A stretch of DNA of 64,000 bases from Terriglobia bacterium (GCA_963847515.1 CAWKAA010000007.1:968952-1032951), one strand, 5' to 3'; counted from the stretch's first letter, positions 1,849-48,840 are shown. The notes: a model not told the origin generated them from the sequence alone. Program-made: numbers and translations.

Positions 1849-1856
1849 CGGGCAAC

Positions 1857-3140
1857 ATGCGCGTCGCGTTTTTCTCCCCACTTCCTCCATCCCGAAGCGG
1901 CATCGCAGATTACTCGCAGGCGCTTCTGGAGCCACTGAAACGGCACCTGGAGATCGAGGTCTTCTCCGATGGCGGGCGCGAGTTCCGGCCGGAAGGCTTC
2001 GACCTGGCGCTGTATCAGATCGGCAACAATCCTTATCACGATTTCGTTTACGAGACGGCGCTGCGGCATCCCGGCGTTGTCGTGATGCATGAATCGAACT
2101 TGCACCACCTGATTGCGGACATCACCATCAAGCGCGGCGATTGGGACGCGTATCTGGGGGAAGCCGAATACAACGGCGGCGCCGGCGCTCGGAGTACGCG
2201 CGGAGGGTGCAGCGCTCAAGGCCGGGCCCGACTACGAAGGCGTGCCCATGACGCGGCGCCTGCTGGAATCGGCCCAGGCCTGATGGTGCATGCCGATTTC
2301 ATGCGATGCGAAATGCGGGCGCCGGGTTTTGCCGGCCCGATCGCGCGCATCCCGCACGGCGCCTGGATTCCGGAAGTCGACCGCTGGCATATCGCCACCG
2401 GCTGGGATTGGACGAACGACGCCGCTGATCGGCATCTTCGGGTTCCTGAAGCCCTACAAGCGAATTGCCGAATCGCTGCGCGCCTTCCGCCGCCTGGTGC
2501 GCGCTGAGCCCGGAGCCCGAATGATCCTGGTGGGCGAGCAGCATCCGGAGTTCCCGCTCGAATCGCTGATCCGCACGCTGGATCTCTCGGCCAAGTCCGC
2601 GTGCTGGGCTTCACACCCATCGAGGATTTCGTGGGTTACATGGCAGCCATGCGACATCGTGCTCAATCTGCGCTATCCCACAGTTGGCGAGAGCTCCGGC
2701 AGCTGCTGCGCTCGCTGGGTCTGGGCGAGGCGGTGCTGGTCTCCGAGATCGGATCTTTCGCGAGTTGCCGGACGACGTGTGCCTGAAAGTGCCGGTGGGG
2801 CCGGGACGAAGAGGATCTGATCTTCGAGTACCTGAACCTGCTGGTCTCGCGTCCCGAGGCTCGCCAAAGCTTGGGCGCGCGGGCGAGGGATTACGTGGAG
2901 CGCGAGTGCAACTGGGCGGCCGTGGCGCGCCGATATGCCGCGTTCCTTTGCGCCGTCAAGGAAGGCCGCGAGTGGCGCGAGGTGGCGGCTACGGCGCCGG
3001 AGCCGCGCCCGAATCCGGAGCCTGTCCCTGAGCATATATGGCCGGCTGGGCGGCCAGCGCAGGCGCGCCAGGAATATATCGAAACCCATCAGACGCGGCT
3101 CGCTCAAACGCTGGAAATCACGCCACCGCGGCGGGCCTGA
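1857..3140 (+). pseudogene. GT4 glycosyltransferase disrupted by several frameshifts
   Basis: N-terminus MRVAFFSPLPPSRSGIADYS (frame 0). Later GT4 segments PLIGIFGFLKPYKRI...ILVGEQHPEF (frame +1), RVLGFTPIEDFVGYMAA (third frame) and C-terminus ARDYVERECNWAAVARRYAAFL (frame 0 again). At least 4 frame changes. Confidence 0.7.
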
Positions 3141-3800
3141 CGACCGCATCCTGGAAATGGGCGCGTATCTGCAAATCACCCCCGCGCTTCACACCAAGTT
3201 GGGATATGGCGAAGTGCGCGGCTGTTATTACGGCCGGCGGGCAGCGTGGACCATCGCACGTCACGGTTTCGGACGAAGGCGAGCGTTCGATGCGACATCG
3301 ACCACTTCGACGCCGAGAAGGACCCTTTCCCTTACCCCGACTGAGTATTTCTCCACGGTGCTCTGCTGCGAGCTGATCGAGCACCTGCTTCACGACCCCA
3401 TGCACCTGATGTCGGAGGTGAACCGCATCCTGAAGCCCGGCGGCCACCTGGTGCTGACCACTCCCAATATCGCGGGCTTGCGCGCCATCTGCGGCCATCC
3501 TGCAGGGCTATCATCCCGGATTTTTTCACGCTTACATCCGGCCCGCAGAGGACGGCGAGACGGCGGCCCGCCATAATCGCGAATACACGCCGCGCGAAGT
3601 CGCACAAGTCTGCTCGAAAATTCGGGGTTCGAGGTGACGCGCCTCGAGACCGGCGCGTTCCGCGAGGAGCCCAGCCGGAGTACGCCTGGGTGCTGCACCT
3701 GCTGGAGCGCTACAATCTGGATACCGGACTGCGCGGCGACGGCATCTACGCCGTGGGCCGCAAGACCGGCCCGGTGCGCGAGCGCTATCCCGTCCTGGCT
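3141..3800 (+). pseudogene. Class I SAM-dependent methyltransferase disrupted by several frameshifts
   Basis: Segments ILEMGAYLQITPALHTKLGYGEVRGCYYG, DHFDAEKDPFPYPD, FSTVLCCELIEHLLHDPMHLMSEVNRILKPGGHLVLTTPN and YNLDTGLRGDGIYAVGRKTG lie in different frames. Boundaries approximate. Confidence 0.6.
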
Positions 3801-3809
3801 CTATACATG

Positions 3810-4200
3810 ATGCGCGCCTATGATGTTCAGCACGCAGAAGTCCAGGCGAATGGCGATCAGTTCGATCACCGTGAGCTTCGAGATGCGCAATCTCACTTCC
3901 GAAGCCGTGGCGGCCGGCGGAAGGCTTCGCCGTCGGCTATCACGTCTTCGATCCCGAAACAGGCACGTTGGTGAGTGGATGGCCCGCGCACCGCGCCCGC
4001 AGGCGGACATCGCGCCAGGCGAAAACGCAGCGTTCGAACTGCATTTCGAGCTTCCGCCAGGAGCCTGGCCGGTACCGGGTGTTCGTTTCGGCCGTGCGAG
4101 AGAAGGCGTATTGGCTGTACGAGCGCGGCTCCGAGTTCCTGCTGGTCGAAGCGGCGGTGGACGCGGGCGCGCAAGGGTAGAGAGATTCCGCGTCGACGAC
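3810..4200 (+). pseudogene. Unassigned coding remnant split between two frames (APGENAAFELHFELPPGAWPVPGVRF / YRVFVSAVREKAYWLYERGSEFLLVEAAV)
   Basis: Protein-like translations in two overlapping frames with no single intact ORF. Continues the frameshift-ridden stretch. Confidence 0.3.
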
Positions 4201-4269
4201 GGAAACGCGTCGGTGCGCCGCGAAAGATTGTCTGCGCTCGGTCGGGCGCGCCTTCACCTGCCGTTCGAA

Positions 4270-4975
4270 CGATCTGGCGCAACCGCAGCCTCATCCGGAC
4301 CATGGTGCGCCGCGATGTGCTGGGGCGGTACCGCGGATCGTTCGGCGGCGCGTTCTGGACCGTGCTCAATCCGCTGATGCTGATGCTGACGTACTTCTTC
4401 GTCTTCGGCGTGGTGCTGCGCGCGCGGTTTCCCAACGACCCCAGCCGCGCCGGCTTTGCGCTCTATTTCCTGGCCGGCATGCTGCCGTGGCTGGCGTTCA
4501 GCGAGGCCGCCGGGCGCGCGCCAACCGTCATGCTGGAGCATCGCAATTTCGTCAAGAAGCTGGTATTCCCGGTGGAAACGCTGCCGGTGAACCTGGTGAC
4601 GGCGGGCCTGGTGAGCGAAGTCTTCGGCGTGGCGCTGTTTCTTCTGGCTCGTACTCTGGCACGTGGATACGTTCCCGCCTCGATCGTGTGGCTGCCGGTG
4701 CTGGTGGTCCCGCAGATTCTGTTGACGGCGGGCCTCTGCTGGTTCCTGGCGGCGCTCGGAGTGTTCGTGCGCGATCTGGCCCAGCATCAACGGGTTCCTG
4801 CTGACGCTGTGGTTTTTCCTGACGCCGATCTGCTATCCCGGAAGCTTCGCTGCCTGGCCCGGCCCTGCGGATCCTTTCGAAGAATCCGATGTTCGTGCTG
4901 GTGCGCGGCTATCGCGCTGCGCTGCTCGAGGGCCGTGCGCCCGCCTTTCAGTTCGTTACTGGAAGCTGTGCGTGA
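4270..4975 (+). pseudogene. ABC-2 type polysaccharide/O-antigen export permease (Wzm-like), frameshifted
   Basis: IWRNRSLIRTMVRRDVLGRYRGSFGGAFWTVLNPLMLMLTYFFVFGVVL... is a typical Wzm N-terminus and TM core. The frame switches near 4785 (LAQ|INGFLLTLWFFLTPICYP) and again before NPMFVLVRGYRAALLEG. No in-frame start found. No Wzt ATPase gene nearby. Confidence 0.6.
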
Positions 4976-5008
4976 TTTCAGCGGCGGTATTTTCATTCTG
5001 GGTCACGC

Positions 5009-5614
5009 ATGGTTTTACAAGCTGCGGAAATCGTTCGCGGATATGATGTGACTGTATTCGAAGGCGTGGCACTCGCCGAACTTGCCGGTTGCTGGATTCT
5101 GTGGTCGTTGGCGTTTATCAAGCCGCGAAAGCAAGCCGCCGGACAGCAAGCCGTGGTCGCCGCGCCCGTCGCGAAATGGGGCATTCTGCTGCAAATGTTT
5201 GGCTTTGCGCTGGTGTGGGCTTATATACGGCCCGTGGGATTTCAGAAGGCGCCGGCGTCGCTGGTCGTGTCCATGATTCTGGGCCCGGCCTCGGTGGTGC
5301 TGGTGTGGATGGCCGCACGGTATCTCGGAAAGCAGTGGCGTTTCGAAGCGGCGCTCATTCAGGATCACGATCTGGTGCGGACGGGCCCCTACCGCTTCAT
5401 CCGGCATCCCATCTATGCGTCGATGCTGGGCATGCTACTGGCCACGGGATTCGCCTGGACGTGGTGGCCGATGTTTGCGGGAGCAGTCGTCGCATATCTG
5501 GCCGGGACAGAAATCCGCGTGCGCGCCGAAGACCGTTTGCTGGAGGAACGATTCCAGGAAGATTTCATAACCTACCGTTCCCGTGTGCGCGCTTACATTC
5601 CCGGCCTGCGGTAG
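5009..5614 (+). CDS. Isoprenylcysteine carboxyl methyltransferase (ICMT)/phospholipid methyltransferase family membrane protein
   Basis: Multiple TM helices and the family motif TGPYRFIRHPIYASMLG...E-R.LE..FG..Y..Y (EDRLLEERFQEDFITYRSRV). Confidence 0.8.
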   Translation: MVLQAAEIVRGYDVTVFEGVALAELAGCWILWSLAFIKPRKQAAGQQAVVAAPVAKWGILLQMFGFALVWAYIRPVGFQKAPASLVVSMILGPASVVLVWMAARYLGKQWRFEAALIQDHDLVRTGPYRFIRHPIYASMLGMLLATGFAWTWWPMFAGAVVAYLAGTEIRVRAEDRLLEERFQEDFITYRSRVRAYIPGLR

Positions 5615-6477
5615 TGGTTCGGAGAAGGCTCGACATGCACGAGCACATCGGCCACCCAGTCCACGTCGCGGCGGATGCGATTGCGCACTTGCTCGGCAAT
5701 GTCGTGTGAGAACCGCACGGTGATTTCGGGGTCCACCTCGAGGTGGAGATCGACGTGATACTGCAGTCCCGTCTTGCGCGCGAAGCATTTTTCAACGCCT
5801 TCCACCCCTGAAACCTGCTGGGCCACATCGCGAATCGTCCGCATCATCCGGTCGCTGGGCATAGTGTCCATCAACTGCAGGCCGGTGTCGCGCGTCACCC
5901 GCACCCCGGTGAAAATCACGATCAGCCCTACGACGAAGCCGCCATAGTGGTCGGCAGCGAGGAAACGTTGAGGATCGTGGAGCGTAAGGCTGACGGCGGC
6001 AAGGGCGGCGAGACCAGAGACGATATCTACGGCGTCGTTCCAGCCGTCGGCGGCCAAAGCAGTGCTGCCAATCTTTTTCCCAAACCGGAATTTCACGCCG
6101 CATAGAACGCTCTTGACGCCAATGGAAACGATCAGTGGCCAGATGGCATAGGCAGCCGGCGGCTGGTGCGTTTCACCAGCGAAGAGCAGCGCGTGGAATG
6201 AGATGGCCACGCCGGTCCCGAACAGCATCAAACCGACCAGCAGCCCAGTGAGCGTCTCGGCGCGGCCGTGGCCGTAAGGGTGATTCCAGTCCGCCGGTTT
6301 AGCGGCGAGCGTCAGTCCCAAAAAGACCAGGCCCGAAGACAGGACATCGCCGGCCGACTCCAGTCCGTCGGCCACGACCGAAATCGAGCCGGCCATTATG
6401 CCAGTGATGATCTTCGCCACGGCGAGGCCGCTGCTCACGATCATGCCGCCGAGCGCAACCTTCTGGCCGATCCGCAT
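5593..6477 (-). CDS. Cation diffusion facilitator (CDF) family metal efflux transporter (FieF/CzcD-like)
   Basis: Six TM helices with HxxxD-type motifs (NHPYGHGRAE, ADGWNDAVD) and a C-terminal cytoplasmic domain. Convergent 22-bp overlap with the ICMT gene. Confidence 0.85.
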   Translation of the reverse strand: MRIGQKVALGGMIVSSGLAVAKIITGIMAGSISVVADGLESAGDVLSSGLVFLGLTLAAKPADWNHPYGHGRAETLTGLLVGLMLFGTGVAISFHALLFAGETHQPPAAYAIWPLIVSIGVKSVLCGVKFRFGKKIGSTALAADGWNDAVDIVSGLAALAAVSLTLHDPQRFLAADHYGGFVVGLIVIFTGVRVTRDTGLQLMDTMPSDRMMRTIRDVAQQVSGVEGVEKCFARKTGLQYHVDLHLEVDPEITVRFSHDIAEQVRNRIRRDVDWVADVLVHVEPSPNHYRRPGM

Positions 6478-6531
6478 CCCTTCAGTTTAGCCAGTCGTGA
6501 TAATCGCCGAAGGGAGCGTCCTGGGTGTGGC

Positions 6532-7305
6532 TCAATTCGCCGAAGGAGCCAGATGCCCGCGGCGATTCTTTTGCCAGCAGTCCTCGTTATGATCGGTGCA
6601 CTGCGGACGCTCTTTGCCGTAGCTGATAGTAGTCAATTGAGCGGCTGGAACGCCGAACTCGATCAGGTAGTCTCTGGCCTCTCTCGCGCGGCGATCGCCC
6701 AGCGCCAGATTGTACTCGGCGGACCCACGTTCGTCACAGTGGCCCTCCACACTGACTTTTGCACTCTGGAAACTTTTGAAGATGTCCTTCAAAGCGCTGG
6801 CGTCCTGCTGCAGTGCTGTGCGCGCATCCAGCCGAAGGCTGGACTTGTCATAGTCAAAGTAGGCATCCCTGGTCTGATCGCTAAGCAGGTCGCCGAATGA
6901 CTTTCGGGGTGCGACTGCGGCGGTTGGCGCGGGAATGGTTACTCGCACCGCAGTGGTATCCTCCGCTGTCCCGCCAGGTCCCTTTGCGACGAGCGTATAT
7001 GTCGTGTTGCTATTCGGGAACACCTGCCGGCTGCCGCCGGGTTGCACGGCGCCGGCACTGGGCTCAATCGTGACACTTGTGGCATTGCTGACGGACCAGC
7101 TCAAGGTGGACGACTCGCCACGTGTGATGTCTGCTGGTGAAGCCGCAAACGTCGAGATCACCGGTTTTAGCGGCGGAGGCGCAGATTCTTTGGCGGCCGG
7201 CATTGGAGCCGGGGGCGGAAGGGCGGCAACTTTCTTCTTACAAGCGGACGCGATTAGCAAGATGCACAACAGCAGCGCAAATAACTCGAATTTTCGCTTA
7301 GTCAT
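6532..7305 (-). CDS. OmpA-family / peptidoglycan-associated lipoprotein (Pal-like)
   Basis: Start at MTKRKFELFALLLCILLIASAC (lipobox LIASAC) with AGGAGA SD upstream. Pro/Ala-rich linker. C-terminal OmpA_C motif VEGHCDERGSAEYNLALGDRRAREARDYL. Confidence 0.85.
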   Translation of the reverse strand: MTKRKFELFALLLCILLIASACKKKVAALPPPAPMPAAKESAPPPLKPVISTFAASPADITRGESSTLSWSVSNATSVTIEPSAGAVQPGGSRQVFPNSNTTYTLVAKGPGGTAEDTTAVRVTIPAPTAAVAPRKSFGDLLSDQTRDAYFDYDKSSLRLDARTALQQDASALKDIFKSFQSAKVSVEGHCDERGSAEYNLALGDRRAREARDYLIEFGVPAAQLTTISYGKERPQCTDHNEDCWQKNRRGHLAPSAN

Positions 7306-7597
7306 ATAGTTTTTCTTCTCCTGTCGTTTTCTGTGAAAACACCGCGGCTGCATGGTGGCGCCTGGCAGCCGCGGCCCCTGGGATTCGGTGCCCTTTTCCG
7401 TCACTGCGCCTCTTACACCTAGTTAGCGGGAAATCGACCTCGGATAGATATACTGTCCAGCCAGTATTTTGGAGGGCGCCGGGGCGTGAGCCCGGCAGGG
7501 CCGGGTCGTATCCGATTTGAGGCGAAAATACCGGGCCGGAGGGATGTTACTCGCAGCCTTGTGTTCTTATCCTGAAAACAGCAAAGGAGTCAAACAC

Positions 7598-18798: not shown

Positions 18799-18986
18799 TA
18801 ACCCAGGTCATGAGGTATTCGTGGCTCGATTGCGGGGAGCAGCGCGCGAGCGTTGCTGGATCCCCTTTTGGGGACTCTGGGGGCAGCATGTCCAGCAAAG
18901 TTGTCGCCTCGGAAGCGCTATAATTCCATTATGGAGCTGCGATAGGCGACGTGGAATACCGTGGCTCGTCGACGGCTTCAGAAGGC

Positions 18987-19592
18987 ATGGGTGTTTCCGT
19001 TTTACCGACAATTGCACTCCGGCGTTTCAAGCCTTCTGATCGCGCTGACGTCACATCGTTGCTAACGGATCTCCCTGCTCTTTACCCGGAAGGGGCCAAA
19101 TGGCTACAGCGTCGGCTAGACGACGTCATCGAGAACCGAGCGCGGTGTACGTTGGCAGTTTGTCACACCGCAATCTTAGGTGCGACAATCGAGACCCCCA
19201 AGGGTATAAGGCATATGAAGCTCTCCACTATCTTCGTGCGGCCAGCCGTGCGAAAACGTGGTGTTGGCTCCCTGCTGATTGACGACTGCCGTCGTCGCTG
19301 GGAGCTGTCCGACTTGGACGATGTTACTGTAACGGTGGCCTGGATGCGGCTTCCGGAGGTGACTCCGCTGTTCCGGCGCGCAGGTTTTGAAATGGTCGCC
19401 ATTGAACAGGCCCGCTATGGAAATGAACGCGATGAGGCAGTCCTTCGATGGTGCGGTTCACCGCACCTCACGTCGAGTAGCGATGTCGATCAGGCCGGAG
19501 CTCGCCGATGCAATCTACAATGGCACAAAATGCTTCGAATTCAGACGGTGTTACGTTCGGATTCCTGTGGGTTCGATAGTCCTCCTCTATGA
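18987..19592 (+). CDS. GNAT family N-acetyltransferase
   Basis: Motif A-like KLSTIFVRPAVRKRGVGSLLI. GC about 55%, below the local average. C-terminal ~35 aa overlap the next gene in another frame. Confidence 0.65.
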   Translation: MGVSVLPTIALRRFKPSDRADVTSLLTDLPALYPEGAKWLQRRLDDVIENRARCTLAVCHTAILGATIETPKGIRHMKLSTIFVRPAVRKRGVGSLLIDDCRRRWELSDLDDVTVTVAWMRLPEVTPLFRRAGFEMVAIEQARYGNERDEAVLRWCGSPHLTSSSDVDQAGARRCNLQWHKMLRIQTVLRSDSCGFDSPPL

Positions 19593-19821
19593 GATACGGC
19601 CCGTGGCGCGAATTACCGGCCAATTCACGGTAGCTGAGGTGATTTTTGGGCTACCCCACCACCTGATCGAACTTGAGTCAAACTGCGTCGCCCGGGAATG
19701 CGCAGTTGCTTACCTGGCGGGGGCCCTGCGGGCTTCTGCCCTTCGAATCGAATCACCGGGAAGGTGGGCGACTCCGATTCGGATGACCAACCCCCCTCAA
19801 TCATATCGTTTCGTAGACTGA
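19483..19821 (+). CDS. ASCH (ASC-1 homology, PUA-like) domain protein
   Basis: ELADAIYNGTKCFEFRR matches the ASCH G-x-K-x-x-E-x-R motif. About 110 aa beta-barrel-sized domain. Start uncertain (alternatives 19387 and 19417). Confidence 0.55.
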   Translation: MSIRPELADAIYNGTKCFEFRRCYVRIPVGSIVLLYEIRPVARITGQFTVAEVIFGLPHHLIELESNCVARECAVAYLAGALRASALRIESPGRWATPIRMTNPPQSYRFVD

Positions 19822-19826
19822 CATCC

Positions 19827-20891
19827 ATGTCCTACTTCGCCGTTGTCAAGACCATCGACGGCAAGTCGCTCGAAGTTCGCCACTGCCACATCAATCTCTG
19901 GTCGCTCCCTGGTCTAATGCGCCGCAAGATGTACTTTGATATTGGCATTCACTTGGTCGCCCTCGAGGATGGACTGAACAAAATTGATATCGTCGTACCG
20001 TTCGTAGCCGAGTCTCTCTCGGATCTATCGAGCACTCTGTATGATCCGGTGACTTCACAGCTAATCTTTCGTCGTGAATCGATCAACGGCAAACTGTTTT
20101 TTGGAGATGTTGGAGGTCTCGATATAGGCGCCCTCAATGAAGAAGAGTGCAAGCCTGGCCGCAGCAGGCATTCAGACCGCAGTCTGTGGCACCTATCCTT
20201 TCCGGGCTTGCACAAGGACGACCAGCGCTACATCAGGTTACGCCTTGCGATTCGGGATTGTGCTCGCATGTGGAACGTAAAGCAGCACGTGTTTCTGAAA
20301 TATGGTGCGCTGCTGGATTTTAGAGTGGCGGATACTCGGGAGGCACCCGGCGATCCATACTGGGACGGTGTCAGGAGCCGAATTGTACCGTTGTCTGATC
20401 TGCAGTTTTTTGTAATCGCACCGCTGGCGTTTCAAATGCAAGGTGCCAGTCCCCAGCTCAGTACTTCGCGTATTCTGGAAGGCGATTCCTGGGAATCGTA
20501 CTTGCGGCGCAAAACCCGCGGCGAGCGATTCGTAATCTATCAATGGAACTACAGCCAGACAACGCCAAAAGAGCCGATCGACACAAAAAGACCCTACCGC
20601 GTGTTCTTGGACTTGAGCAGAGAGGACCTAAGCGTATCCGTGCCGGTTAGCCTACAAAGCACGGTTGTCTCTCTGTGCCTCCTCGGAATTCTCGTGCCGG
20701 CAATTTGGTGGACGTTCGTCCGCCTTACGCCACAGGGCATAGAAGCTATCGTTCTGAAGGTCGGCATACCATTAACCGCCACTGGAATAATCTCGTGGAT
20801 TGTTGGCAAGATGGGCGCAGCGAAGAAAATCGTTGCCGCTATCGGCCGCATGATCCTACGCCTCGATGGTTGGCGGTACCGGCACGACTAG
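19827..20891 (+). CDS. Hypothetical protein, no recognisable domain: ~290-aa N-terminal soluble region + C-terminal two-TM module
   Basis: ATG 5 bp after the ASCH stop. GC about 50-52% against a ~62% background. Hydrophobic helices VVSLCLLGILVPAIWWTFV and VGIPLTATGIISWIVGKMGAAKKIVAAIG at the C-terminus. Confidence 0.6.
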   Translation: MSYFAVVKTIDGKSLEVRHCHINLWSLPGLMRRKMYFDIGIHLVALEDGLNKIDIVVPFVAESLSDLSSTLYDPVTSQLIFRRESINGKLFFGDVGGLDIGALNEEECKPGRSRHSDRSLWHLSFPGLHKDDQRYIRLRLAIRDCARMWNVKQHVFLKYGALLDFRVADTREAPGDPYWDGVRSRIVPLSDLQFFVIAPLAFQMQGASPQLSTSRILEGDSWESYLRRKTRGERFVIYQWNYSQTTPKEPIDTKRPYRVFLDLSREDLSVSVPVSLQSTVVSLCLLGILVPAIWWTFVRLTPQGIEAIVLKVGIPLTATGIISWIVGKMGAAKKIVAAIGRMILRLDGWRYRHD

Positions 20892-20992
20892 GTACATACG
20901 GTCCCCCGTTTGTCTTCCCGCGGTGGGCCGAGTCCACATGATGCGTCGAGCCGGTCCTCGAAGCGCCAGCGCCTATCGGGCCAAGTTGCAAC

Positions 20993-21844
20993 TTAGGCCG
21001 CTTCGCCTGATCGCGCCAACCGAACCATCTCCGTCAGCACGCTTCGCGCCTCATCACTATTTCTTACTTCTCGCAAAAAAGCCACTCGCCGGCCATGAAT
21101 TCTGTCGCCGGACTTCAGGCGGAGATGGAAGCCCAGGCGATCGACGGCGGTCATGGCAGCCTCGTCGGCGGCCTCGCCTGCAAAGCGGCGGGCGATCAGA
21201 AGGAGCGCAGCGGCGTGATCTGTATTCATGTGCTGGATGATTCCCGGCGCGACTTCGGCGAGAGGATCGGGAAGAGCGCCTCCGTAGTCCTCGGCTGAGA
21301 TCCATCCCATCACACCAAAGCCTCCGATGAAGTAAACGCCCGAGATCTCCAGCCGATAATACGCAAAGTCGGTATAGTCCTGCCAGTATTTTGCGTTTTC
21401 ATACCGCGAGAGATACAGATCACGAACCTCCGCAGCGGGCGCTTCCGTAACGGAACCCAAAAGGGTCACGCGGGCGGCGCCGAGGGGATCGCCGGAAACA
21501 TCCGGCTGGGTAATGAGCAGGCTGGCGCGCGCATCCTGCTGGAGATTCTGTGTGTGCATCGCCATGGTGCTGATGAAAAAGATTGGACGGCCAAGTTCAT
21601 CGGCGGCATAAGGCATCATGGAGCCGAAGGGGAATCCGGGAAACTTACGTGAATGCGTCGACAGGCTGGCGATGCGGCCGAGAGAGGCAAGCGTGCGGGC
21701 GCGTTCGGCGAGTGAGGGCTCAGGAACGTCTGAAGAAGCGGGACCGGGGCCGGCGTGTTGTCGGGTAGGCACGATTCCATGGTAGCTAAGGCGTTCTCGT
21801 AGAATGGAAGCGCCGGAGGATTTCCGTGGGCCATAACACGCCAA
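20993..21844 (-). CDS. Pyridoxamine 5'-phosphate oxidase-like FMN-binding fold protein with C-terminal DUF2470 (HugZ/GluTRBP-like, putative heme-binding)
   Basis: N-terminal split-barrel segment ARTLASLGRIASLST...GRPIFFISTMAMHTQNL. C-terminal HMNTDHAAALLLIARRF...GFHLRLKSGDRIHGRRVAF. Start codon uncertain. Confidence 0.6.
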   Translation of the reverse strand: MACYGPRKSSGASILRERLSYHGIVPTRQHAGPGPASSDVPEPSLAERARTLASLGRIASLSTHSRKFPGFPFGSMMPYAADELGRPIFFISTMAMHTQNLQQDARASLLITQPDVSGDPLGAARVTLLGSVTEAPAAEVRDLYLSRYENAKYWQDYTDFAYYRLEISGVYFIGGFGVMGWISAEDYGGALPDPLAEVAPGIIQHMNTDHAAALLLIARRFAGEAADEAAMTAVDRLGFHLRLKSGDRIHGRRVAFLREVRNSDEARSVLTEMVRLARSGEAA

Positions 21845-22102
21845 AAGGTCTTCTGAAAGGCTCGAAACTGACGCGCAGCCATACCACCGTCATCGAGGCT
21901 GCCATCCCCGCCGTGAGCGCTGCAAAAGAGTCTCCGCACGTTTCCAAGATTGTCATCGGCGTCATCAAGCCCACGAAAACCGGACAACCGCACATTAAGT
22001 TCACGCCGATCCAAGCCGGGTTGCGGATGCAGGTCCGGGGCAATAGCGCTGTCCAAATTTTCTTTGTCTACACAAGCCGGCCTGATGATGTGATGCGGGA
22101 AA

Positions 22103-23089
22103 TTACGGAGAAGTGGGAGGAGCGTTAAGACGTACTGCGCCCGGGGACGGAAGCCGTTGCGCTAAGAGATTGTAGTCCACCATATGCACGATTAAACCGT
22201 CGGCCGCGGTGTTCTTAGAGTACCCAGCTATCAACTGTTTTTTGTATTCACGTAAGAAGAAACAGAAGAAACCCTTGGTCTGATTGCCTACGATCTCCAG
22301 GTCAGCATCCTCCATGATCAGTTTCCCGAACTTTAGGGCGCCGCCCCTATGGTAAATGTAGGCCTCTGTTTTGAAAGGAGGGAGAAGGAGCGGAGGGTGC
22401 CGGCCGGAATCGAAGATCTGAATGATTTTTCCGCCCCTAACGTTTACCTGAGCTACATGTCCTTCCAAATGCGGAGGCGGAGTGATGCCGCGCGGCGAGA
22501 GGATGATATCATCCCCTTCGATTTTCGCCCCTCGCCCTGCGTTCTCATTCACCAGCTTGGAGAGGTCCGCTCCAAAGAGGTGCAGAAGTCCCTTGAAGGG
22601 TACGTGGGCGGACTTGATCTTTTCGGCGTGCAGGCGGATGTCGCCCTCAGGCGTCGCGGAAACCGGCCCCTCGATTTCGAACGGTACATCTACTCCTTTG
22701 TGGAGGGTACCTTTTTGGCTTAGTCTGGCCCCCTTGATGCTCACTTGGATATTCTTAATAGGCGCTCCGGGGTAAGCGAATACGTAAGAATTTAGCAGCG
22801 CGGAAAGACTTGCGGCAGTGATGGCAACTTCGCCGGTGTCGACCTCGACGACGAAAGAATCGATGTCATCGAAGGCGACCAGTCGATCCGGTTTGGTTCT
22901 CTTGAGGCGACCCCTCAGAGTTCGCACCTCGAGGTCGATATCCGACGCGAGCCTGAAATCAACATTACGCATCTGGATTTCGACCGCGCCTTCCTCGGGT
23001 TTGGCTGCCTTCTGCGCTTTTGCGCCAGTAACTAACACCAGGACAATAAAACCGATAGCTGATGAGGCATTGGCAAGATTCGGTTTCAT
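22103..23089 (-). CDS. Hypothetical exported protein
   Basis: N-terminal signal/anchor MKPNLANASSAIGFIVLVLVTGAKA. ATGA overlap with the upstream FAD oxidoreductase gene. Confidence 0.5.
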   Translation of the reverse strand: MKPNLANASSAIGFIVLVLVTGAKAQKAAKPEEGAVEIQMRNVDFRLASDIDLEVRTLRGRLKRTKPDRLVAFDDIDSFVVEVDTGEVAITAASLSALLNSYVFAYPGAPIKNIQVSIKGARLSQKGTLHKGVDVPFEIEGPVSATPEGDIRLHAEKIKSAHVPFKGLLHLFGADLSKLVNENAGRGAKIEGDDIILSPRGITPPPHLEGHVAQVNVRGGKIIQIFDSGRHPPLLLPPFKTEAYIYHRGGALKFGKLIMEDADLEIVGNQTKGFFCFFLREYKKQLIAGYSKNTAADGLIVHMVDYNLLAQRLPSPGAVRLNAPPTSP

Positions 23090-24123
23090 TGGCGGCTCCA
23101 AGCGGGTGCGTGAGCTCGCGAGGTTCCAATAAAGCTCGCGCGCGTCAAGCGAAATAGTGCCTGAGCAGGAAGGTACGGCACCAACCAGTGGACTTCGGTG
23201 TGGCCGGCGAGTCGACGTAAGACCGAGGAAATGGAGAAGGTACGCCCCAGCAGAGATCTACACGCTTGGATGTACCCCGACTTTGGTATCCGCCGCGCCG
23301 CCGCCAGGCCGGCAAGTCGCCCGGTCAACAGCGCGTTCAAAATCCCGGATCCAGTGAACGGATCGACAAATCCTAACGAGTCGCCGGCCGGGTAGACATC
23401 GGTTCTGAGATCGCAATTCGAGGGAGGTGTAAACGAGAGAGGACCGGTCACCATCCAACGCATGCTCCGTTGGAGAGGACCGAGACGTTCAGCCAAGGGT
23501 TTCGACAGAAGAACGATCTGGTCGAAGTCGAATGCATATCTCTTTAACAGCGACTCGCGTGCGATCCCGCACACGTTAGTCCGGCCGTTTTCGATACAGT
23601 TTACTCCCACATATCCCTGTCCACTAAAGAACAGTTCAACAGCATCATCTGAAGGACCTTCAAAATGAGCCTTAAAGCCGAACAGCCGGTCGACCCGGTC
23701 TGATGCCGGTTTACGTCCGCAAGCCAAGATCACGCGGCCTTCAAAGTGATTAGTTGTCCGGGGATCGAAACTCTGGCCATGCGAGATGATCGCGCCGAGA
23801 GCCCCGGCTTTCTCGAGCAGTAGGCGGTCCAGCTGTAACCGGCTCAATCCCCAGGCACACTCCGGAAGCTTCCACTGCTTAGAGCGATCCCCAAGGTGCA
23901 GAACGCATCTCCGGATCCGGCTCGGCCCGAGCACGCCGAAGTCGTGCCAGACCTGCAGCGCTTCTAACAATTCCGCCGCATCGGGAGAAATAAATTCCCC
24001 GCACACCTTGTGCCGGAGCGTTGTGGACCGCTCGATCAGCCGTACAGGAGCTCCCTCCAGCCGTGCGGCGATTGCCGCCGCTGCTCCGGCTGGGCCGCCA
24101 CCCGCGATGAGAATCTTCTCCAT
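23086..24123 (-). CDS. FAD-dependent oxidoreductase (geranylgeranyl reductase-like / NAD(P)/FAD-binding)
   Basis: Dinucleotide-binding N-terminus MEKILIAGGGPAGAAAAIAARLEGAPVRLIERS and GD motif region VYPAGDSLGFVDPFTGSGI. Confidence 0.75.
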   Translation of the reverse strand: MEKILIAGGGPAGAAAAIAARLEGAPVRLIERSTTLRHKVCGEFISPDAAELLEALQVWHDFGVLGPSRIRRCVLHLGDRSKQWKLPECAWGLSRLQLDRLLLEKAGALGAIISHGQSFDPRTTNHFEGRVILACGRKPASDRVDRLFGFKAHFEGPSDDAVELFFSGQGYVGVNCIENGRTNVCGIARESLLKRYAFDFDQIVLLSKPLAERLGPLQRSMRWMVTGPLSFTPPSNCDLRTDVYPAGDSLGFVDPFTGSGILNALLTGRLAGLAAARRIPKSGYIQACRSLLGRTFSISSVLRRLAGHTEVHWLVPYLPAQALFRLTRASFIGTSRAHAPAWSRQ

Positions 24124-26610: not shown

Positions 26611-27120
26611 TCACCGTCCGGCGAGGCGCAGCACCATGTGTTCCTCGTCGACGTAAAACTCCCCCACGCGCAAGGCGTGGCGTTCGCAGCCGAAAGATTC
26701 AAAGCCGAGCGACAAATAGAGCTTTACGGCGGCCGTCTGTCCCGTGGCCACCGTCAACTTGATCTGCTCGAGACCCGGTTGTTCCGCGGCTTTTCGCAGC
26801 AGTTCGACTAGAAGTTTTCTGCCAACGCGGTTTCCTCGCCACTTTTCGGACACATAGACGCCCCAGATGAAACCCTTGTGCCTGGATTTTTCTTGTTGCT
26901 CGCGAACGAAGCCTGCCGTTCCGATCAGTTGCCCATCCGCCAACGCGCCCACCACGAAGCTGTTATCCGTGGGCCGCAGACGCCGCCGCACCTCATCCAT
27001 GGTGGTCGACCGGAATTCTGCGGCTGAGGAGCCGAAGGCATACAGCTCTTTCTCGAGCGCTTCGAGGCGCAGCGGCCAAAAAGCTTCTGCGTCATGCTCG
27101 GTCAGAACGCGGATATCCAT
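26611..27120 (-). CDS. GNAT family N-acetyltransferase
   Basis: Acetyl-CoA binding motif GVYVSEKWRGNRVGRKLLVEL. Confidence 0.8.
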   Translation of the reverse strand: MDIRVLTEHDAEAFWPLRLEALEKELYAFGSSAAEFRSTTMDEVRRRLRPTDNSFVVGALADGQLIGTAGFVREQQEKSRHKGFIWGVYVSEKWRGNRVGRKLLVELLRKAAEQPGLEQIKLTVATGQTAAVKLYLSLGFESFGCERHALRVGEFYVDEEHMVLRLAGR

Positions 27121-27128
27121 GCACCGTT

Positions 27129-28064
27129 TCAAGCGCCGGTTTTCAAAAACGTCCGGATTCGCTCGATCACGAGCGCAGGCTTCTCGTGCACCACCCAGTG
27201 CGAGCCGTCGGGAATGCGCTCGATCGTCAGCGGTTTGACAAACTGATCGAGCCCCTCGAGATTGCCGGTGAGCAGCGCCGTATCTTTCTCGCCCCAGATG
27301 ACCAGCGTAGGCGTAGTGATCAGTGCCAGCGGCTGGATCGCGGGAGCCTTGGCCGCCTCTCCCGTCGGCGCGCCTACGGGCGAGCTCAACCGGGACGCGC
27401 GATAAAAGTTCAAGCCTCCGGTCAGCCCTCCCGGCTGGTTCCAGGCTGCCAGGTACTGCTTTTGGTCTTCTTCATTGAGCACCGAACCAAACGCCTGCAG
27501 CATGCCCGCATAGTTGTTCGCGCTAAGAATCTGCTCTGCCTGCGGCGATGTAAATAGGTTGAAATACTCGCTCGCCTTTTGCTGGGCCGGATTGTTCGCG
27601 AGTTCACGAGCAAACACCGTGGGATGCGGTGCGTTAATGATGACGAGTTTGTCGAGCATCTCCGGATGCTGCGCGGCGAAGGCCCACGCAATCACACCGC
27701 CCCAATCGTGTCCCACCAGGATGAATTTCTTGGCCTTCAGACTCTCCGCCAGAGCGCGCACATCTTCAACAATAATTGGAACGCGGTAAGCGTCGACTGG
27801 TTCCGGTTTCGCAGACAGGTTGTACCCGCGCATGTCCAGCGCCACGGCGTGGTGGTCGCGGCCAAAATCGGTGAGCAGATCCCGCCACGCGTACCAGAAC
27901 TCGGGGAAGCCGTGCAGAAAAAGAATCACCTGGCCTTTGCCTTCTTCCACGTAATGCAGACGGACGCCATTTACTTCGGCATAACGATCTTTCCACGCAG
28001 GTTTGTCCGCTGCCATCAGAACTGTGCAGGCCAGCATGGCGCTACAGCTTATCCAGAATCGCAT
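27129..28064 (-). CDS. Secreted alpha/beta hydrolase (epoxide hydrolase-like)
   Basis: Signal peptide. HGFPEFWYAWR...GHDWGG nucleophile motif. Confidence 0.8.
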   Translation of the reverse strand: MRFWISCSAMLACTVLMAADKPAWKDRYAEVNGVRLHYVEEGKGQVILFLHGFPEFWYAWRDLLTDFGRDHHAVALDMRGYNLSAKPEPVDAYRVPIIVEDVRALAESLKAKKFILVGHDWGGVIAWAFAAQHPEMLDKLVIINAPHPTVFARELANNPAQQKASEYFNLFTSPQAEQILSANNYAGMLQAFGSVLNEEDQKQYLAAWNQPGGLTGGLNFYRASRLSSPVGAPTGEAAKAPAIQPLALITTPTLVIWGEKDTALLTGNLEGLDQFVKPLTIERIPDGSHWVVHEKPALVIERIRTFLKTGA

Positions 28065-33694: not shown

Positions 33695-35242
33695 CTATCG
33701 CAGCGGGGGCGTTGAAGCCGGAGGACGCCGGTGCATCGTTGCCTGCTCATAGGCATACGCCAGCTTGATCAACTGCGCTTCCGACCATGCCCGACCGTAG
33801 AATGTTATACCCACTGGGAGCGTGCCCCCGCGCGAATAACCCATCGGCACGTTAATTGCCGGAAAACCCGTTGTAGGCGCGAATACCTGGCTGTTGTCGC
33901 CGGCAGGCGTATTCAAATCCCCAATCAGCCGCGGTGGATTGCTCCACGTGGGATACACAAAGGCATCCAGCTTCAGCCGGTCCATCGTCTTCACCACCGT
34001 TTTCCGGAATTGTTCGCGATAGGCGTCCTCGGCTTGGCACGCTTCCGAATCCGGGCCATTTTCCGGCCCCTTTTCCGAATCCTCAAGTCGCTTCTGCGTC
34101 GAGGGATGGAATTTTCCCGACTTCAGAATCGCCGCGAGATCTGCCACAGGAACCTGCCCACCCCGGTCAGCCAGAAAGTGATTCAGGTCGTACTTGAAGC
34201 CCATGCACGGGCTGGGGCCGGGCTGCCGTTTGACTTCCAATCCCTCCACCTTCACCGGATCGACGACCGTTGCACCCGCTCGCCGCAGGTCCTCCAGCGC
34301 CCGCATGAAGATCTGGACAATCTCGGGGTCGGTTGAGTCCTGCTCGTACGCCTCACGCAGTACGCCGATGACCGCTCCTTTAAGGCCGTTCCGGTCCAGC
34401 GACTTGCTGTATTCCGGGATGGAGTGTCCCTTCGCTGCGGCTGTCGCCGGGTCTCTTGGATCCTCACCTACGATCACCTGAAACACCTTGACTGCATCTT
34501 CCATGGTGCGTGCCATGGGTCCCGCTACGTCGGCGCGTGTGTTTAGGGGAAACATGCCAGCGCGACTGGTGAGCCCCATCGTCGAGCGGATACCGGCGAG
34601 TGACTGATGGGATGACGGTCCACGAATCGAATCGCCGGTATCGCTACCGAACCCGACAAGCCCGAAGCTGGCAGCGATCGCTGCCGCCGTGCCGCCACTC
34701 GACCCTGCCGTCACCCGATCCAGCGCGTAGGGATTCTTCGTGTAACCGGGCAGAATCGAACTGACCGTCTCGACGGGACTGAACGCCCACTCGGCCATGT
34801 TGGATTTCGCCAGCACAATCGCGCCCGCCGCTTTTACCCGCGTCACCTGAGACGCGTCTTCTTTCGGCTGATAGCCGGCAAATGCGAGAGCACCGTTAGA
34901 GGTCTGCAGTCCCTTGGTTTCGAAGTTGTCTTTGACGATCATCGGCACGCAGTGTAGCGACCCCGTCAGGCCCACCTGGGCGAAGCGACGGTCCATCTCG
35001 TCGGCCTCTTTGATCGCGTCCGGATTGATGGTCACGCTGGCGTTAATCGCCGGCCCGTTCTTGTCGTAAGCGTGGATGCGCCCGATGTAAGCCTCGACCA
35101 GTTCGCGACACGTCAGGCGCCGCTCGCGCATGGCGTCGTGGACCTGGGAGATGGTGGCTTCTTCTACCTCGAAAGGAGCGGCCGTTTGAGCCTGTAAAAA
35201 GACACCAAATAGCAAGGCAAACGCCAATAGGCGAAAACTCAT
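33695..35242 (-). CDS. Secreted amidase (amidase signature family)
   Basis: Signal peptide MSFRLLAFALLFGVFLQA. AS signature GGSSGGTAAAIAASFGLVGFGSDTGDSIRGPS. Confidence 0.85.
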   Translation of the reverse strand: MSFRLLAFALLFGVFLQAQTAAPFEVEEATISQVHDAMRERRLTCRELVEAYIGRIHAYDKNGPAINASVTINPDAIKEADEMDRRFAQVGLTGSLHCVPMIVKDNFETKGLQTSNGALAFAGYQPKEDASQVTRVKAAGAIVLAKSNMAEWAFSPVETVSSILPGYTKNPYALDRVTAGSSGGTAAAIAASFGLVGFGSDTGDSIRGPSSHQSLAGIRSTMGLTSRAGMFPLNTRADVAGPMARTMEDAVKVFQVIVGEDPRDPATAAAKGHSIPEYSKSLDRNGLKGAVIGVLREAYEQDSTDPEIVQIFMRALEDLRRAGATVVDPVKVEGLEVKRQPGPSPCMGFKYDLNHFLADRGGQVPVADLAAILKSGKFHPSTQKRLEDSEKGPENGPDSEACQAEDAYREQFRKTVVKTMDRLKLDAFVYPTWSNPPRLIGDLNTPAGDNSQVFAPTTGFPAINVPMGYSRGGTLPVGITFYGRAWSEAQLIKLAYAYEQATMHRRPPASTPPLR

Positions 35243-35557
35243 CCCCACATAATGACAGACAGCGACTCTCCGCAGTTCAGCTCAGTCCGTGGTCGCACGG
35301 CGCCGGCTTCTCAATGCCTTAGATTCTCTATGGCACGAACCCAGACGAGCCTTAGATAGGGATGAGTTGCGCTACTTTGCTTCCGCGCATGGCGTAGCCT
35401 GGCGTTAACATCGCTCGTCCCGCGCTCAGGCCGCGCGTCCGGATAACTCCCGATGGTCGGGAACCCTTCCACTACTTAGTACTGTCCGGATACCTCGTTA
35501 TACGACCGTAATCCGGGAAAACACGAGTTGCGCTGCGAGGGTGTTACTGTTTCTTGT

Positions 35558-36298
35558 ATGAAAACAGCGTTGTACGGGCGGATCGTCTTTGGCGCGTCGG
35601 CTGTGCTGTTCGGCGTCATCGCGCTGACGTGGTACGACTCTGACACCTGGCAAACCCTGCGTCAGATCTGGAGCCTGCCTTTTGGAACCGTCATCGGCGG
35701 GTGTCTCATGATCGTTCAAATTGCCGGTGGGATTGGGGTGCAGTACCCAAGGACCGCGCGTTCGGCGTCGATCGTTCTCGGCATCATCTATTTGTTTTTC
35801 TCCCTGGCCTGCATCCCTGGCATCATTGCCGCACCGACCATCTATGTGCATTACGGGAGCTTCTTCGAACAGTTTTCCTCACTCTGTGGTGCGATTGCCC
35901 TGTACGCTGCAACCGAGGCAAATGCAGCACGGGCCGTAGCGTTCGGCCGAGTAGCGCGCCTTGGACTCGGAGTCTGCGCGATTTCATTTACGCTGAGTCA
36001 GATACTCTATCTTCCTTTGACAGCTGACTTGGTTCCAAAGTGGATTCCGCCAAATCAGGCTTTTTGGGCGATACTCACGACGATCGCATTTGCACTCGCG
36101 GCGATTGCCATTCTCATCAATCGCCAGGCACAGCTTGCGATACGCCTGATGACCCTCATGCTGGCACTCTTTGGTGTGTTGGTTTGGGTTCCGCGCCTGA
36201 TCGCTCACCCAGAAGCCCATCTAAACTGGTCCGAATTCGGCTTGACTTTCCTCATTACAGGGGCGGTCTGGATGGTGGCTGATTTGAGGTCTTTCTGA
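35558..36298 (+). CDS. Hypothetical integral membrane protein (about 7 TM)
   Basis: Continuous hydrophobic helices, no soluble domain. Confidence 0.6.
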   Translation: MKTALYGRIVFGASAVLFGVIALTWYDSDTWQTLRQIWSLPFGTVIGGCLMIVQIAGGIGVQYPRTARSASIVLGIIYLFFSLACIPGIIAAPTIYVHYGSFFEQFSSLCGAIALYAATEANAARAVAFGRVARLGLGVCAISFTLSQILYLPLTADLVPKWIPPNQAFWAILTTIAFALAAIAILINRQAQLAIRLMTLMLALFGVLVWVPRLIAHPEAHLNWSEFGLTFLITGAVWMVADLRSF

Positions 36299-36444
36299 TT
36301 TAAGGCGGTGTTTGCACGCCGCTTAATCGTGCAACCGCCAGCGTTGTTTCCGGTTCACTTTGTATGTGGTCGGGGATACTTCCCCTACTTTTCTGCGTGC
36401 CCTCGACGCTACGCCGAGCCCCGAATTTGAAAAGTAGTTTCCGG

Positions 36445-36913
36445 TTACGCCGTGATCCTGGCGCAACTCGCTTTCTGATCGGTGATCCCGTCCGTAACGG
36501 CCACCAGCGTGTCTCCCGGCTCCAATCGCATCGCCCGCTGCTCGAACACTGTTCTAGTGCTCAAGCCAAGCACAGTCCCAGTGCTATTGAGTGTTATAGT
36601 CCTTTTCTTGTTAGCTCTAAGCAGGACTGCTCGATCGTGGCCCGCATTCACATAGTGCATTTCTCCTGTGTCAACATCGACGCGAGCGCAAAACATCGTC
36701 GCGAAGAAATTATCTGGCGCAAGCTGCCAAACCATACGGTTCAGATTGTCCATTAGCTTGCCAAGCTCGAAATCCATATGCGATTCCAACGCACGTAACG
36801 AACCCTGAACTGCGGCCATGATCGAGGCGCTCCGCAATATCGGAGGTAAACTGTGCAACCATCGACGATCGGATTTCCAGTGAAACCAGAGTAAGTGTGT
36901 TCCTGTTGTTCAT
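36445..36913 (-). pseudogene. Remnant of a PP2C/SpoIIE-type serine phosphatase (C-terminal fragment, frame-split)
   Basis: FATMFCARVDVDTGEMHYVNAGHDRAVLL...LEPGDTLVAVTDGITD matches the SpoIIE/RsbU C-terminal region. No N-terminal half. Upstream piece in another frame. Region GC is low. Confidence 0.5.
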
Positions 36914-37071
36914 ATCTGGAAGACGTTCCTCGGTGGGGTCGCGATGATGACGAATTGCGAAGATTTGTTAAGCTCGTGTATGTGAGGTGAGCCACAGAGA
37001 AATGCGCACAATAAATCCGTGTGCCCCTTTTCCCTTAATCCGTATCAGTTGCGAGATTCGAACCTCGAGGT

Positions 37072-37854
37072 CTATCTGTCAGTCGCCATAAAGCTTGAAA
37101 ATCCAAAGTCGCCTATAACGCCAGCGGCACCTTCCAGGTAATACCCGACCCCTGGATTGCCACTCGCAAATCTGTCATCGCTGAGTTGAATCTTCTGCAC
37201 GCCATTGATGTAGACCGAAAGGATCTTTCCAATCATAGTGGCCTTCACTATATCTCCATCCTTGACCCCGTATTCTGAACCTCGCGTCTCTTTCAGCATG
37301 GTGAACTTTCCCAGCGGCCCCTCCCACCTGGCGATATTGCAATAGGCCTTCGGAATTTTGGAGCACCGAAACATGACTTCGTACCCCGTGCAATTGTGTG
37401 GAGAAATGGAACTCCGCAGGCGCAACTCCACTTCCTCCCAGACCTTGCCGTCCTGGTTCGGGTTCACCGAGCGGACCGTGGCTTGGACCGTTTGATTCGG
37501 TCCCCAAGTACCCTTCAACAGGGCCGTGGAGTCGTCGTATTTCTGTGGATCTGGTCGATTCCCGCCTATTTCGGTCCCAAATGCGAAGCCGGGAGTCGTC
37601 CGGACGTCGGTCCAATCTAGGCCGTCGGCCTGGCCATTCAGCCATTTGCCGCCTTCCGAAATCGGATTCTCGGCGCGGAAAAAAGTAGTGGCGTAAGGCC
37701 CGTGCGTTCCTGTCGGAGCAGGGGCCGGCAACAAGCTCAACGAGCGCGTTGACCGAGGCCAGATCCCTGCGATGAGAAACAGTGCGATCGTGGGCAAGCC
37801 AACGATCAGTTTGTGCTTCGGTCCTTCAACATTCATAAGTAACCACTGAAGCAT
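37072..37854 (-). CDS. Hypothetical secreted protein (signal anchor, beta-rich)
   Basis: N-terminal TM LIVGLPTIALFLIAGIW. No recognisable catalytic motif. GC about 52%. Confidence 0.5.
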   Translation of the reverse strand: MLQWLLMNVEGPKHKLIVGLPTIALFLIAGIWPRSTRSLSLLPAPAPTGTHGPYATTFFRAENPISEGGKWLNGQADGLDWTDVRTTPGFAFGTEIGGNRPDPQKYDDSTALLKGTWGPNQTVQATVRSVNPNQDGKVWEEVELRLRSSISPHNCTGYEVMFRCSKIPKAYCNIARWEGPLGKFTMLKETRGSEYGVKDGDIVKATMIGKILSVYINGVQKIQLSDDRFASGNPGVGYYLEGAAGVIGDFGFSSFMATDR

Positions 37855-48692: not shown

Positions 48693-48840
48693 CCTTCATG
48701 CCCGAATTTGCTTAAAGTGAGCAGTTTTGAGCAGACATTGCTCCAAGAAAGTTTTAGCGTTGCTGGATCGGGGTCGAGGATTGGCATTCCTGGGATATGA
48801 AAGCCGGGCTCTTGTCGTGAAAATGTTAGAGGAGATGAGT

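Follow-up and report, generated by a model that had tools for sequence, protein, structure and literature searches.

A 64,000-nucleotide (nt) stretch of DNA from a Terriglobia bacterium (GCA_963847515.1, CAWKAA010000007.1:968952-1032951; here called the window, with positions counted from its first letter) carries, at 18987-20891 on the plus strand, a cassette of three co-directional genes, which open reading frame (ORF) calling and direct reading of the sequence place in the order GNAT acetyltransferase, ASCH protein and a third protein that we name X. The first-pass annotation of the window had described three compact, partly overlapping genes on one strand, and this is what is present, with the GNAT and ASCH genes overlapping by 110 nt (19483-19592). 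Pairing of a GNAT with an ASCH protein is already known, as a prediction, as a candidate system in PADLOC and as an annotated phage toxin–antitoxin (TA) pair. What is new is the architecture of a stand-alone GNAT with X, the X family itself, and the substitution of the ASCH gene in related loci by a second ASCH subtype or, it may be, a MazG-like gene; these are absent from the libraries and papers searched. The idea of an undescribed module thus holds for X and the domain-stripped GNAT, but not for the GNAT–ASCH pairing.

The GNAT gene occupies 18987-19592, with its domain at 19008-19457. Of two candidate starts, GTG 18951 and ATG 18987, we favour the ATG because a Shine–Dalgarno-like AGAAGG, read from the sequence, lies at 18980-18985, 1 nt before it. 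The ASCH frame is open from 19387 to 19821 and has two likely starts, ATG 19417, which gene callers picked in close homologues, and ATG 19483, where homology begins and from which we annotate the gene (19483-19821); X follows at 19827-20891. The last position of the GNAT domain, 19457, is followed on the same strand by the onset of ASCH homology at 19483, and the two are adjacent genes arranged as in PDC-M11-like operons (introduced below). The overlap arises where the GNAT frame stays open for ~130 nt beyond its domain (19466-19592). In relatives of the same gene order (loci L012, L027 and L030 of the set described below), a stop codon lies 12 nt past the domain, so we regard the tail as the product of a lost stop codon and not as a conserved feature; a programmed frameshift or a GNAT–ASCH fusion, both considered for the overlapping frames, is ruled out by the same stop. 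The GNAT of L004 also has a read-through tail, of 183 nt. Promoter and terminator scans at the cassette were at background level.

The GNAT protein matches Pfam Acetyltransf_10 (expectation value (E) 5.8e-7; 30 bits against a cut-off of 23.6) and a small-GNAT family hidden Markov model (HMM) built in this analysis (E 6e-73). It is about 160 amino acids (aa) long with a domain of ~150 aa, lacks PIN and EVE domains, and carries the motifs LPxLYPxGxxWLxRRL and RKRGVG. The second of these is the acetyl-CoA motif A (R/Q-x-x-G-x-G/A); it follows a conserved KLSTIFV strand, and its Gly is shared by every sequence of the family alignment.

The ASCH protein matches DUF3850 at that family's cut-off in Pfam, and ASCH itself at E 0.01, but it is recognized by three PDC-M11B models of PADLOC (best E 2.9e-17) and by phrog_3136 (E 7e-17). 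Its tblastn matches in phages are lambdoid and streptococcal prophage genes, and it is 31% identical, across 99% of its length, to GevA-type phage proteins. We call this type ASCH1. Its similarity to solved ASCH structures is weak at best (ZmASCH, E 0.008), and close homologues of the window protein have been named ‘predicted transcriptional regulator’ by JGI. In some related loci ASCH1 is replaced by a second, TTHA0113-like subtype, ASCH2, which has no PADLOC match and whose nearest solved relative is TthASCH (PDB 2DP9, TTHA0113; E 1e-14).

The octapeptide of the window ASCH, GTKCFEFR, fits GxKxxExR with both Lys and Glu and so belongs to the GKER subgroup. Of 24 ASCH ORFs of X-family loci, 22 keep the pattern, and the exceptions are confined to the degraded locus L001. 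In a recent preprint, 19 ASCH proteins including TthASCH were found to deacetylate N4-acetylcytidine (ac4C) in tRNA, with the Lys and Glu of the GKER octapeptide essential for ac4C removal (bioRxiv 10.64898/2026.02.27.708502). YqfB, by contrast, has GRKTITIR with K21 and T24, Thr24 being the nucleophile in a Thr-Lys-Glu triad (PMC6972931). We rejected a YqfB-type (GKTR) assignment for the window protein, which has Glu at the position of YqfB Thr24 and is therefore of GKER type.

X, a protein of 354 aa (355 in the first-pass annotation), has no family match in Pfam, NCBIfam, PHROGs or PADLOC. At E ≤ 1, Pfam returned noise only (DUF6131 0.068, TrbL_4 0.095, DUF3624 0.19), and further family members tested against PADLOC and, for three of them, Pfam also gave no match; X is not a known housekeeping family. 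A word-index search of 5.8 billion proteins, which sees close relatives only, found 10 homologues (30-100% identical and mostly ~354 aa). An exhaustive profile search found 797 representatives (clustered at 50% identity) with E ≤ 1e-3, of which 233 reach E ≤ 1e-30; nearly all match at full length from residue 1, and they come from at least Mycobacteriales and Myxococcales.

An AlphaFold2 model of X, built on a 59-sequence alignment, has a predicted local distance difference test score of 90.4 and a predicted template modelling score of 0.86. Residues 1-271 (19827-20639) form a beta-sandwich domain. A first transmembrane (TM) helix follows at residues 272-299 (20640-20723; DSSP helix, hydropathy peak at 268-286), and a second helix at residues 313-350 (20763-20876; DSSP) combines TM2 with an amphipathic, basic C-terminal stretch; the second hydrophobic peak is at residues 304-322, and W349 is invariant among close homologues. 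The two C-terminal hydrophobic helices reported earlier are thus present, as is the lack of an assignable motif. By hydropathy, 38 of the 59 members have two hydrophobic C-terminal segments and 13 have three. With hydrophobic segments at the C-terminus and no signal peptide found by sequence analysis, the beta-domain is probably cytoplasmic.

The soluble fold of X is of the type seen in the N-domain of M1 aminopeptidases and LTA4H and in the luminal part of Ost1/ribophorin I, and also in lpg2210 (PDB 4g2a), at sequence identities of 5-13%. In M1 aminopeptidase/LTA4H and Ost1 such domains are non-catalytic accessory modules of unrelated processes. X differs from them in having no zinc-peptidase domain (HExxH...E), as judged from the absence of a Peptidase_M1 match in Pfam and the presence of only two helices after residue 271, and in its probable cytoplasmic rather than luminal or extracellular location. 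Its fold also led us to reject X as a substitute, by homology, for an EVE/PUA domain.

Contigs encoding X homologues, together with one genome scan and one metagenome scan, were searched as six-frame ORFs with HMMs built here, and the X loci obtained were dereplicated to 35 distinct ones, given L numbers; the profile scan of genome contigs contributed one locus, L009. A GNAT adjoins X in 31 of these, as a small GNAT in 28 and as a full PIN-GNAT-EVE protein in its place in 3; the remaining 4, with neither type, lie at a contig edge or hold an X fragment only. An ASCH gene (ASCH1 or ASCH2) is present in 23/35. There are at least seven gene orders (GNAT-ASCH1-X, ASCH1-GNAT-X, ASCH1-X-GNAT(-), GNAT-X-ASCH2, ASCH1(-)|GNAT-X, GNAT-X and X-GNAT(-)), among which GNAT-X is the most constant adjacency. 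The co-localization of GNAT, ASCH and X that the first-pass annotation wished to see elsewhere is therefore found, on dozens of unrelated contigs, and because the linkage persists through reshuffling of gene order, we regard the trio as a probable functional unit. One copy with the order GNAT-ASCH1-X is in a complete genome, that of Mycolicibacterium austroafricanum (CP082189.1), and one X locus is in a metagenome-assembled genome of Myxococcales. In four loci (L011, L015, L020 and L029), the immediate neighbours of ASCH1 and X include full PDC-M11A proteins (E 1e-179 to 1e-208); PIN, GNAT and EVE Pfam matches occur among these proteins, no single one having all three.

The cassette also moves. 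A blastn comparison of contig L040 (ENA ERZ25039454, contig_16131) with the window gave one match, L040 956-2869 to window 19001-20917, at 86.6% identity over 1920 nt; the flanks on both sides do not align, L040 being an unrelated context. Because homology is confined to 19001-20917, which we take as the extent of the transferable cassette, with non-matching flanks, the three genes move as a unit. In L040, X is split over three frames, as might result from decay of the copy or from indel errors of long-read sequencing, and the contig encodes an rve-type integrase ~0.6 kb beyond the downstream end of the match. The window cassette has no adjacent tRNA, and no noteworthy direct or inverted repeats, or att-like ones, were found to flank it.

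Base composition had first drawn attention to the locus. GC content is 54.9% across 18987-20891 and 53.4-55.9% in the single genes, against 63.6% in the flanking amidase and 60.1% in the flanking PNPOx-like gene. Windows of the same length have a mean of 59.2% (standard deviation 2.4%), and the islet lies at their 4.5th percentile, 4.5% of them not exceeding its value. GC at third codon positions (GC3) is 0.58-0.62 in the three genes compared with 0.678 ± 0.048 in 38 long ORFs. The GC dip is thus real yet modest, lower in codon usage as well but mild and not unique in the window, and it is unconvincing by itself; the cassette-only homology to L040 argues more strongly for an islet. Elsewhere in the window, 35100-37500 and 48450-52000 have GC equal to or below that of the islet, down to 51%, and the minus-strand ORF 39832-40593 has the lowest GC3 of all (0.51). 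Directly downstream of the cassette, GC3 is also reduced (0.60-0.63) across 20993-24123, which includes a minus-strand ORF (22103-23101; 332 aa, GC 54%) with a hydrophobic N-terminus and no Pfam match.

The mildness of the dip would fit a plain housekeeping role, in which a non-conflict pair of enzymes acetylates and deacetylates RNA or nucleotides with a membrane partner, low GC being incidental. So would the metabolic flanks of the window (amidase, aminotransferase and a CREG/PNPOx-DUF2470 protein) and the report that ASCH ac4C erasers are widespread and housekeeping-like (bioRxiv 10.64898/2026.02.27.708502). We nevertheless think such a role very improbable. The cassette occurs in non-homologous contexts at 86.6% identity; degraded copies adjoin integrases (L001, L040); and the family recurs near conflict genes, namely a NotI-like endonuclease with an N6_N4 methylase (L003), HEPN (L017) and a reverse transcriptase (L002), near integrases or transposases (L001, L002, L025 and L041), and near PDC-M11 genes. 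The small number of close X homologues among 5.8 billion proteins points the same way, weakly, given the reach of the word index.

The closest known relatives of the cassette are the (PIN)-GNAT-EVE + ASCH operons, which were predicted to be TA or defence systems (Bell et al. 2020, BMC Biol, PMC7641849). In the Escherichia phage PhiR47_2 (PV340567.1), GenBank annotates a ‘GevT toxin’ followed downstream by a ‘GevA antitoxin’, between cI and kil. GevT, by sequence a GNAT with a C-terminal domain, matches PDC-M11A at E 2e-133, and GevA matches PDC-M11B at E 6.8e-52; (PIN)-GNAT-EVE + ASCH, PDC-M11 and GevTA are therefore one system. The window cassette shares with it an ASCH of the PDC-M11B subfamily, tight operonic linkage, AAA_17 genes in some X loci and, in the four loci above, PDC-M11A genes next to X. 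Its GNAT profile also aligns with the GNAT domain of GevT/PIN-GNAT-EVE (hhalign, profile–profile; probability 96%, E 1e-9), including a common YPGxxxW(L/F)xx(R/K) motif, and this kinship is moderately supported because an unrelated control GNAT of the window (26614-27471, minus strand) also aligns with the small-GNAT profile (probability 89%, E 2e-6). The cassette differs in that its GNAT has neither PIN nor EVE, so that it is no GNAT-EVE protein, and does not match PDC-M11A; in that X is a third, obligatory-looking gene for which PADLOC has no model; and in that ASCH2 substitutes in some X loci. The words ‘transmembrane’ and ‘MazG’ are both absent from the text of Bell et al. (PMC7641849), and X is not mentioned there.

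X also invites comparison with membrane effectors such as SLATT proteins, the TM effectors of CBASS and Pycsar, and lambda RexB. Like them it combines a soluble domain with a short TM hairpin (helices 272-299 and 313-350) in a conflict-type operon, and it takes the slot that a nuclease (PIN) module holds in a conflict system. Lambda carries rexAB in a slot comparable to that of GevTA between cI and kil of PhiR47_2. X differs from these proteins in having no SLATT or other Pfam similarity and a different soluble fold. Membership of SLATT was rejected on the absence of any SLATT family from the Pfam scan at E ≤ 1; the SLATT-like effector first proposed for X thus survives as an architecture, a soluble domain with a two-TM hairpin, and not as a family assignment, the fold being a beta-sandwich.

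Taken together, we propose with a probability of about 0.5 that the cassette is a mobile Gev-type TA or abortive-infection module, composed of an acetyl writer, an ASCH eraser and X as membrane effector or anchor. The GNAT would place an acetyl group on an amine of a nucleic acid or nucleotide, most plausibly cytidine N4 in tRNA or other RNA, or a cytosine nucleotide. With the Lys and Glu of ac4C-deacetylating enzymes intact, the ASCH protein would strip this mark and act as antidote or off-switch. In this variant the GNAT appears to have lost the fused PIN and EVE domains and to be paired with X instead, which may stand in for those modules, either as a membrane-acting effector or as an anchor or sensor of the GNAT. 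The analysis shows the gene families, the fold of X, the recurrent linkage of the three genes, the kinship with PDC-M11/GevTA and the mobility of the cassette, and from these the substrate, the toxic partner and any anti-phage role are inferred. The toxin/antitoxin-like writer/eraser pair of the first-pass annotation gains from the antitoxin-annotated type of ASCH and its retained Lys/Glu, consistent with the preprint, though the proposed YqfB type did not hold.

Several observations count against this proposal, the control GNAT alignment being one. The window GNAT has no PADLOC match at E ≤ 1, PDC-M11A included. Being a non-catalytic beta-sandwich, the fold of X is uninformative on toxicity. 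Searches for X in IMG/VR with two pattern sets, and in plasmid and phage collections by tblastn with a single query (P0001), found no copy; both are weak negatives. Well-flanked loci with GNAT and X but without ASCH (L005, L018, L023 and L025) are awkward for an essential antidote. Among the known relatives, toxin and antitoxin are names from GenBank annotation, with no published account of GevT/GevA found in the literature searched, and PDC-M11 is a PADLOC ‘candidate’ only, with a single incidental mention in papers, as a ‘phage defense candidate’. A nearby defence island, raised in the first-pass annotation, is not seen at the window flanks, whose genes are metabolic.

The role of ASCH can be read differently. 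In AtaT-AtaR, TacT-TacA, ItaT and KacT, a small GNAT likewise sits beside a small partner gene on mobile DNA, which makes a toxin–antidote logic plausible here. Such type II systems consist of two genes, and their antitoxins are ribbon-helix-helix (RHH)/DUF1778 DNA-binding proteins. Pfam found no antitoxin of RHH/DUF1778 type among the three cassette ORFs, which sets them apart from the AtaT/TacT class; the partner is instead an ASCH with a retained catalytic dyad, accompanied by a membrane protein. A looser version, a type II-like GNAT TA with an accessory gene, would have the GNAT acetylate aminoacyl-tRNA as AtaT and TacT do, the ASCH protein bind or repress without being an enzyme, and X lie outside the core mechanism. 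GNAT toxins of TA systems do acetylate charged tRNA (reviewed in ref. 49 of PMC7641849), and Bell et al. suggest that ASCH binds DNA and regulates expression, noting HTH-ASCH (helix-turn-helix) fusions (PMC7641849); the JGI name for the ASCH homologues and the annotation of GevA as antitoxin agree with this. We consider this version possible but doubtful, in view of three features. X is linked to GNAT (31/35) more tightly than is ASCH (23/35), which argues that X is no passenger; the conserved Lys/Glu of the octapeptide would be needless in a pure binder; and two ASCH subtypes and a MazG-like protein in the third slot fit interchangeable enzymes better than a specific protein–protein antidote. 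An eraser role, as proposed for the Gev-type module, has a precedent in the ASCH ac4C erasers, which share the ASCH fold and GxKxxExR with Lys and Glu (GKER), ASCH2 being a clear TthASCH homologue; the cassette ASCH differs from them in lying inside a mobile cassette rather than standing alone, and from YqfB in the Glu that replaces Thr24.

The N-terminus of X raises a further question. Residues 1-5 (19827-19841) follow the consensus M-S/G-Y/F-F-A, MSYFA in the window copy, and such whole-family conservation is unusual: M1 and F4 are kept in ≥90% of the 59 diverse members, and N-terminal extensions are nearly absent, ~133 of the 150 best profile matches beginning at residue 1-3. A small residue at position 2 predicts Met removal, and an exposed Ser or Gly is typical of N-alpha-acetylation substrates. 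The GNAT might thus acetylate X itself, at its N-alpha position in RimI-like fashion or on lysine, and so switch X on or off, in which case a nucleic-acid substrate would be wrong. That GNAT-X is the most conserved adjacency speaks for this, as does RimI being the best NCBIfam match of the GNAT (E 5.8e-4), but at 20 bits against a cut-off of 86 that match amounts to generic GNAT similarity. The conserved residues form the first beta-strand and may be structural. Acetylation of X would also leave the ASCH and MazG-like partners unexplained, together with the kinship to GNAT-EVE proteins, EVE and ASCH being nucleic-acid modules (PMC7641849), and we regard it as most improbable.

Nucleotide-acting genes recur beside X in the sister loci: MazG-like (4 loci), AAA_17, an HD phosphohydrolase, a nucleoside deoxyribosyltransferase-like and a thymidylate-synthase-like protein. 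The MazG-like pyrophosphohydrolase (PF12643, E 5e-6 to 6e-13) adjoins X or GNAT in L011, L018, L023/L024 and L025/L026, of which three of the four distinct loci lack an ASCH gene, and it may be an alternative third component.

Such partners would suit a signalling form of immunity, in which the messenger would be an acetylated nucleoside or nucleotide produced by the GNAT, its sensor the beta-sandwich of X, and its outcome the opening or disruption of the membrane by the hairpin; ASCH or the MazG-like protein would degrade the messenger to prevent autoimmunity. The soluble domain and TM hairpin of X resemble the sensor-TM effectors of signalling defence, and replacement of the PIN nuclease module of PIN-GNAT-EVE by X looks like an effector swap. 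The third component, whether ASCH1, ASCH2 or MazG-like, acts on nucleosides or nucleotides in each case, and YqfB-type enzymes and TthASCH cleave free N4-acetylcytidine (PMC6972931; bioRxiv 10.64898/2026.02.27.708502). Against this, the fold matches of X include no known nucleotide-binding relative, there is no acetylated nucleotide among known second messengers, and GNAT+X loci exist without any eraser; we find signalling improbable, and keep the Gev-type TA module as our working model.

Other neighbourhoods of X are more elaborate. On the 3.57-Mb contig of L041 (ENA ERZ25039548), an expanded cluster at 1322-7374 begins with an integrase, X and ASCH1, continues with an HD/HD_assoc_2 phosphohydrolase (563 aa) and a 216-aa protein with an HExxH-like motif, and ends with a small GNAT, a nucleoside 2-deoxyribosyltransferase-like protein and an HTH protein. 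In L020 (6487-8386), a thymidylate-synthase-like gene (PF00303, E 3e-25) and one for an unassigned 293-aa protein lie directly downstream of PIN-GNAT-EVE, ASCH1 and X, with an HTH/Peptidase_M78 gene farther downstream. In L017, an AAA_17 P-loop protein and a HEPN protein (PF05168, E 2e-12), at 954-1580 and 4170-4694, lie upstream and just downstream, respectively, of ASCH1-GNAT-X; AAA_17 is an accessory of (PIN)-GNAT-EVE + ASCH operons (Bell et al. 2020, PMC7641849).

A 690-aa protein upstream of ASCH1-X-GNAT(-) in L028, L031 and L035 (~1590-3659 in L028) combines a GNAT at its N-terminus with a PIN-like LAILDSN segment and, at its C-terminus, a region resembling EVE; it matches PDC-M11A with its C-terminus only (E 3e-13) and represents a further Gev toxin architecture. 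The degraded copy in L001 (674-2604) has its GNAT in three frames, has lost the octapeptide (GQTISSSIGR) and has an altered X hydrophobic tail; it adjoins a phage-type integrase and a Y2 transposase. In L033 (4992-8020), the X gene is truncated (profile positions 1-172) and adjoins a Dam-like methylase ORF and an N6_Mtase/Eco57I-type methylase, and an upstream ORF (4418-4909) carries a ‘DLGKGSIG’ motif reminiscent of the RuvC-I/Cas9 N-terminus.

GNAT–ASCH (Gev/PDC-M11) systems occur widely among bacteria, archaea and prophages, and no published mechanism for them was found in the literature searched. The variant described here splits the acetyltransferase from PIN and EVE and couples it to X, so that writer, eraser and membrane component are genetically separable and directly testable, for which the M. 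austroafricanum copy (CP082189.1) offers a cultured starting point. Were signalling to prove true, X would belong to a new family of ligand-gated effectors, with ~800 subfamilies, answering to a new class of second messenger. The pairing is of interest now that ASCH proteins have been proposed as RNA ac4C erasers: if our proposal is true, an acetyltransferase and the eraser of its mark would travel together on a mobile cassette, as a natural pair of writer and eraser serving in genetic conflict.

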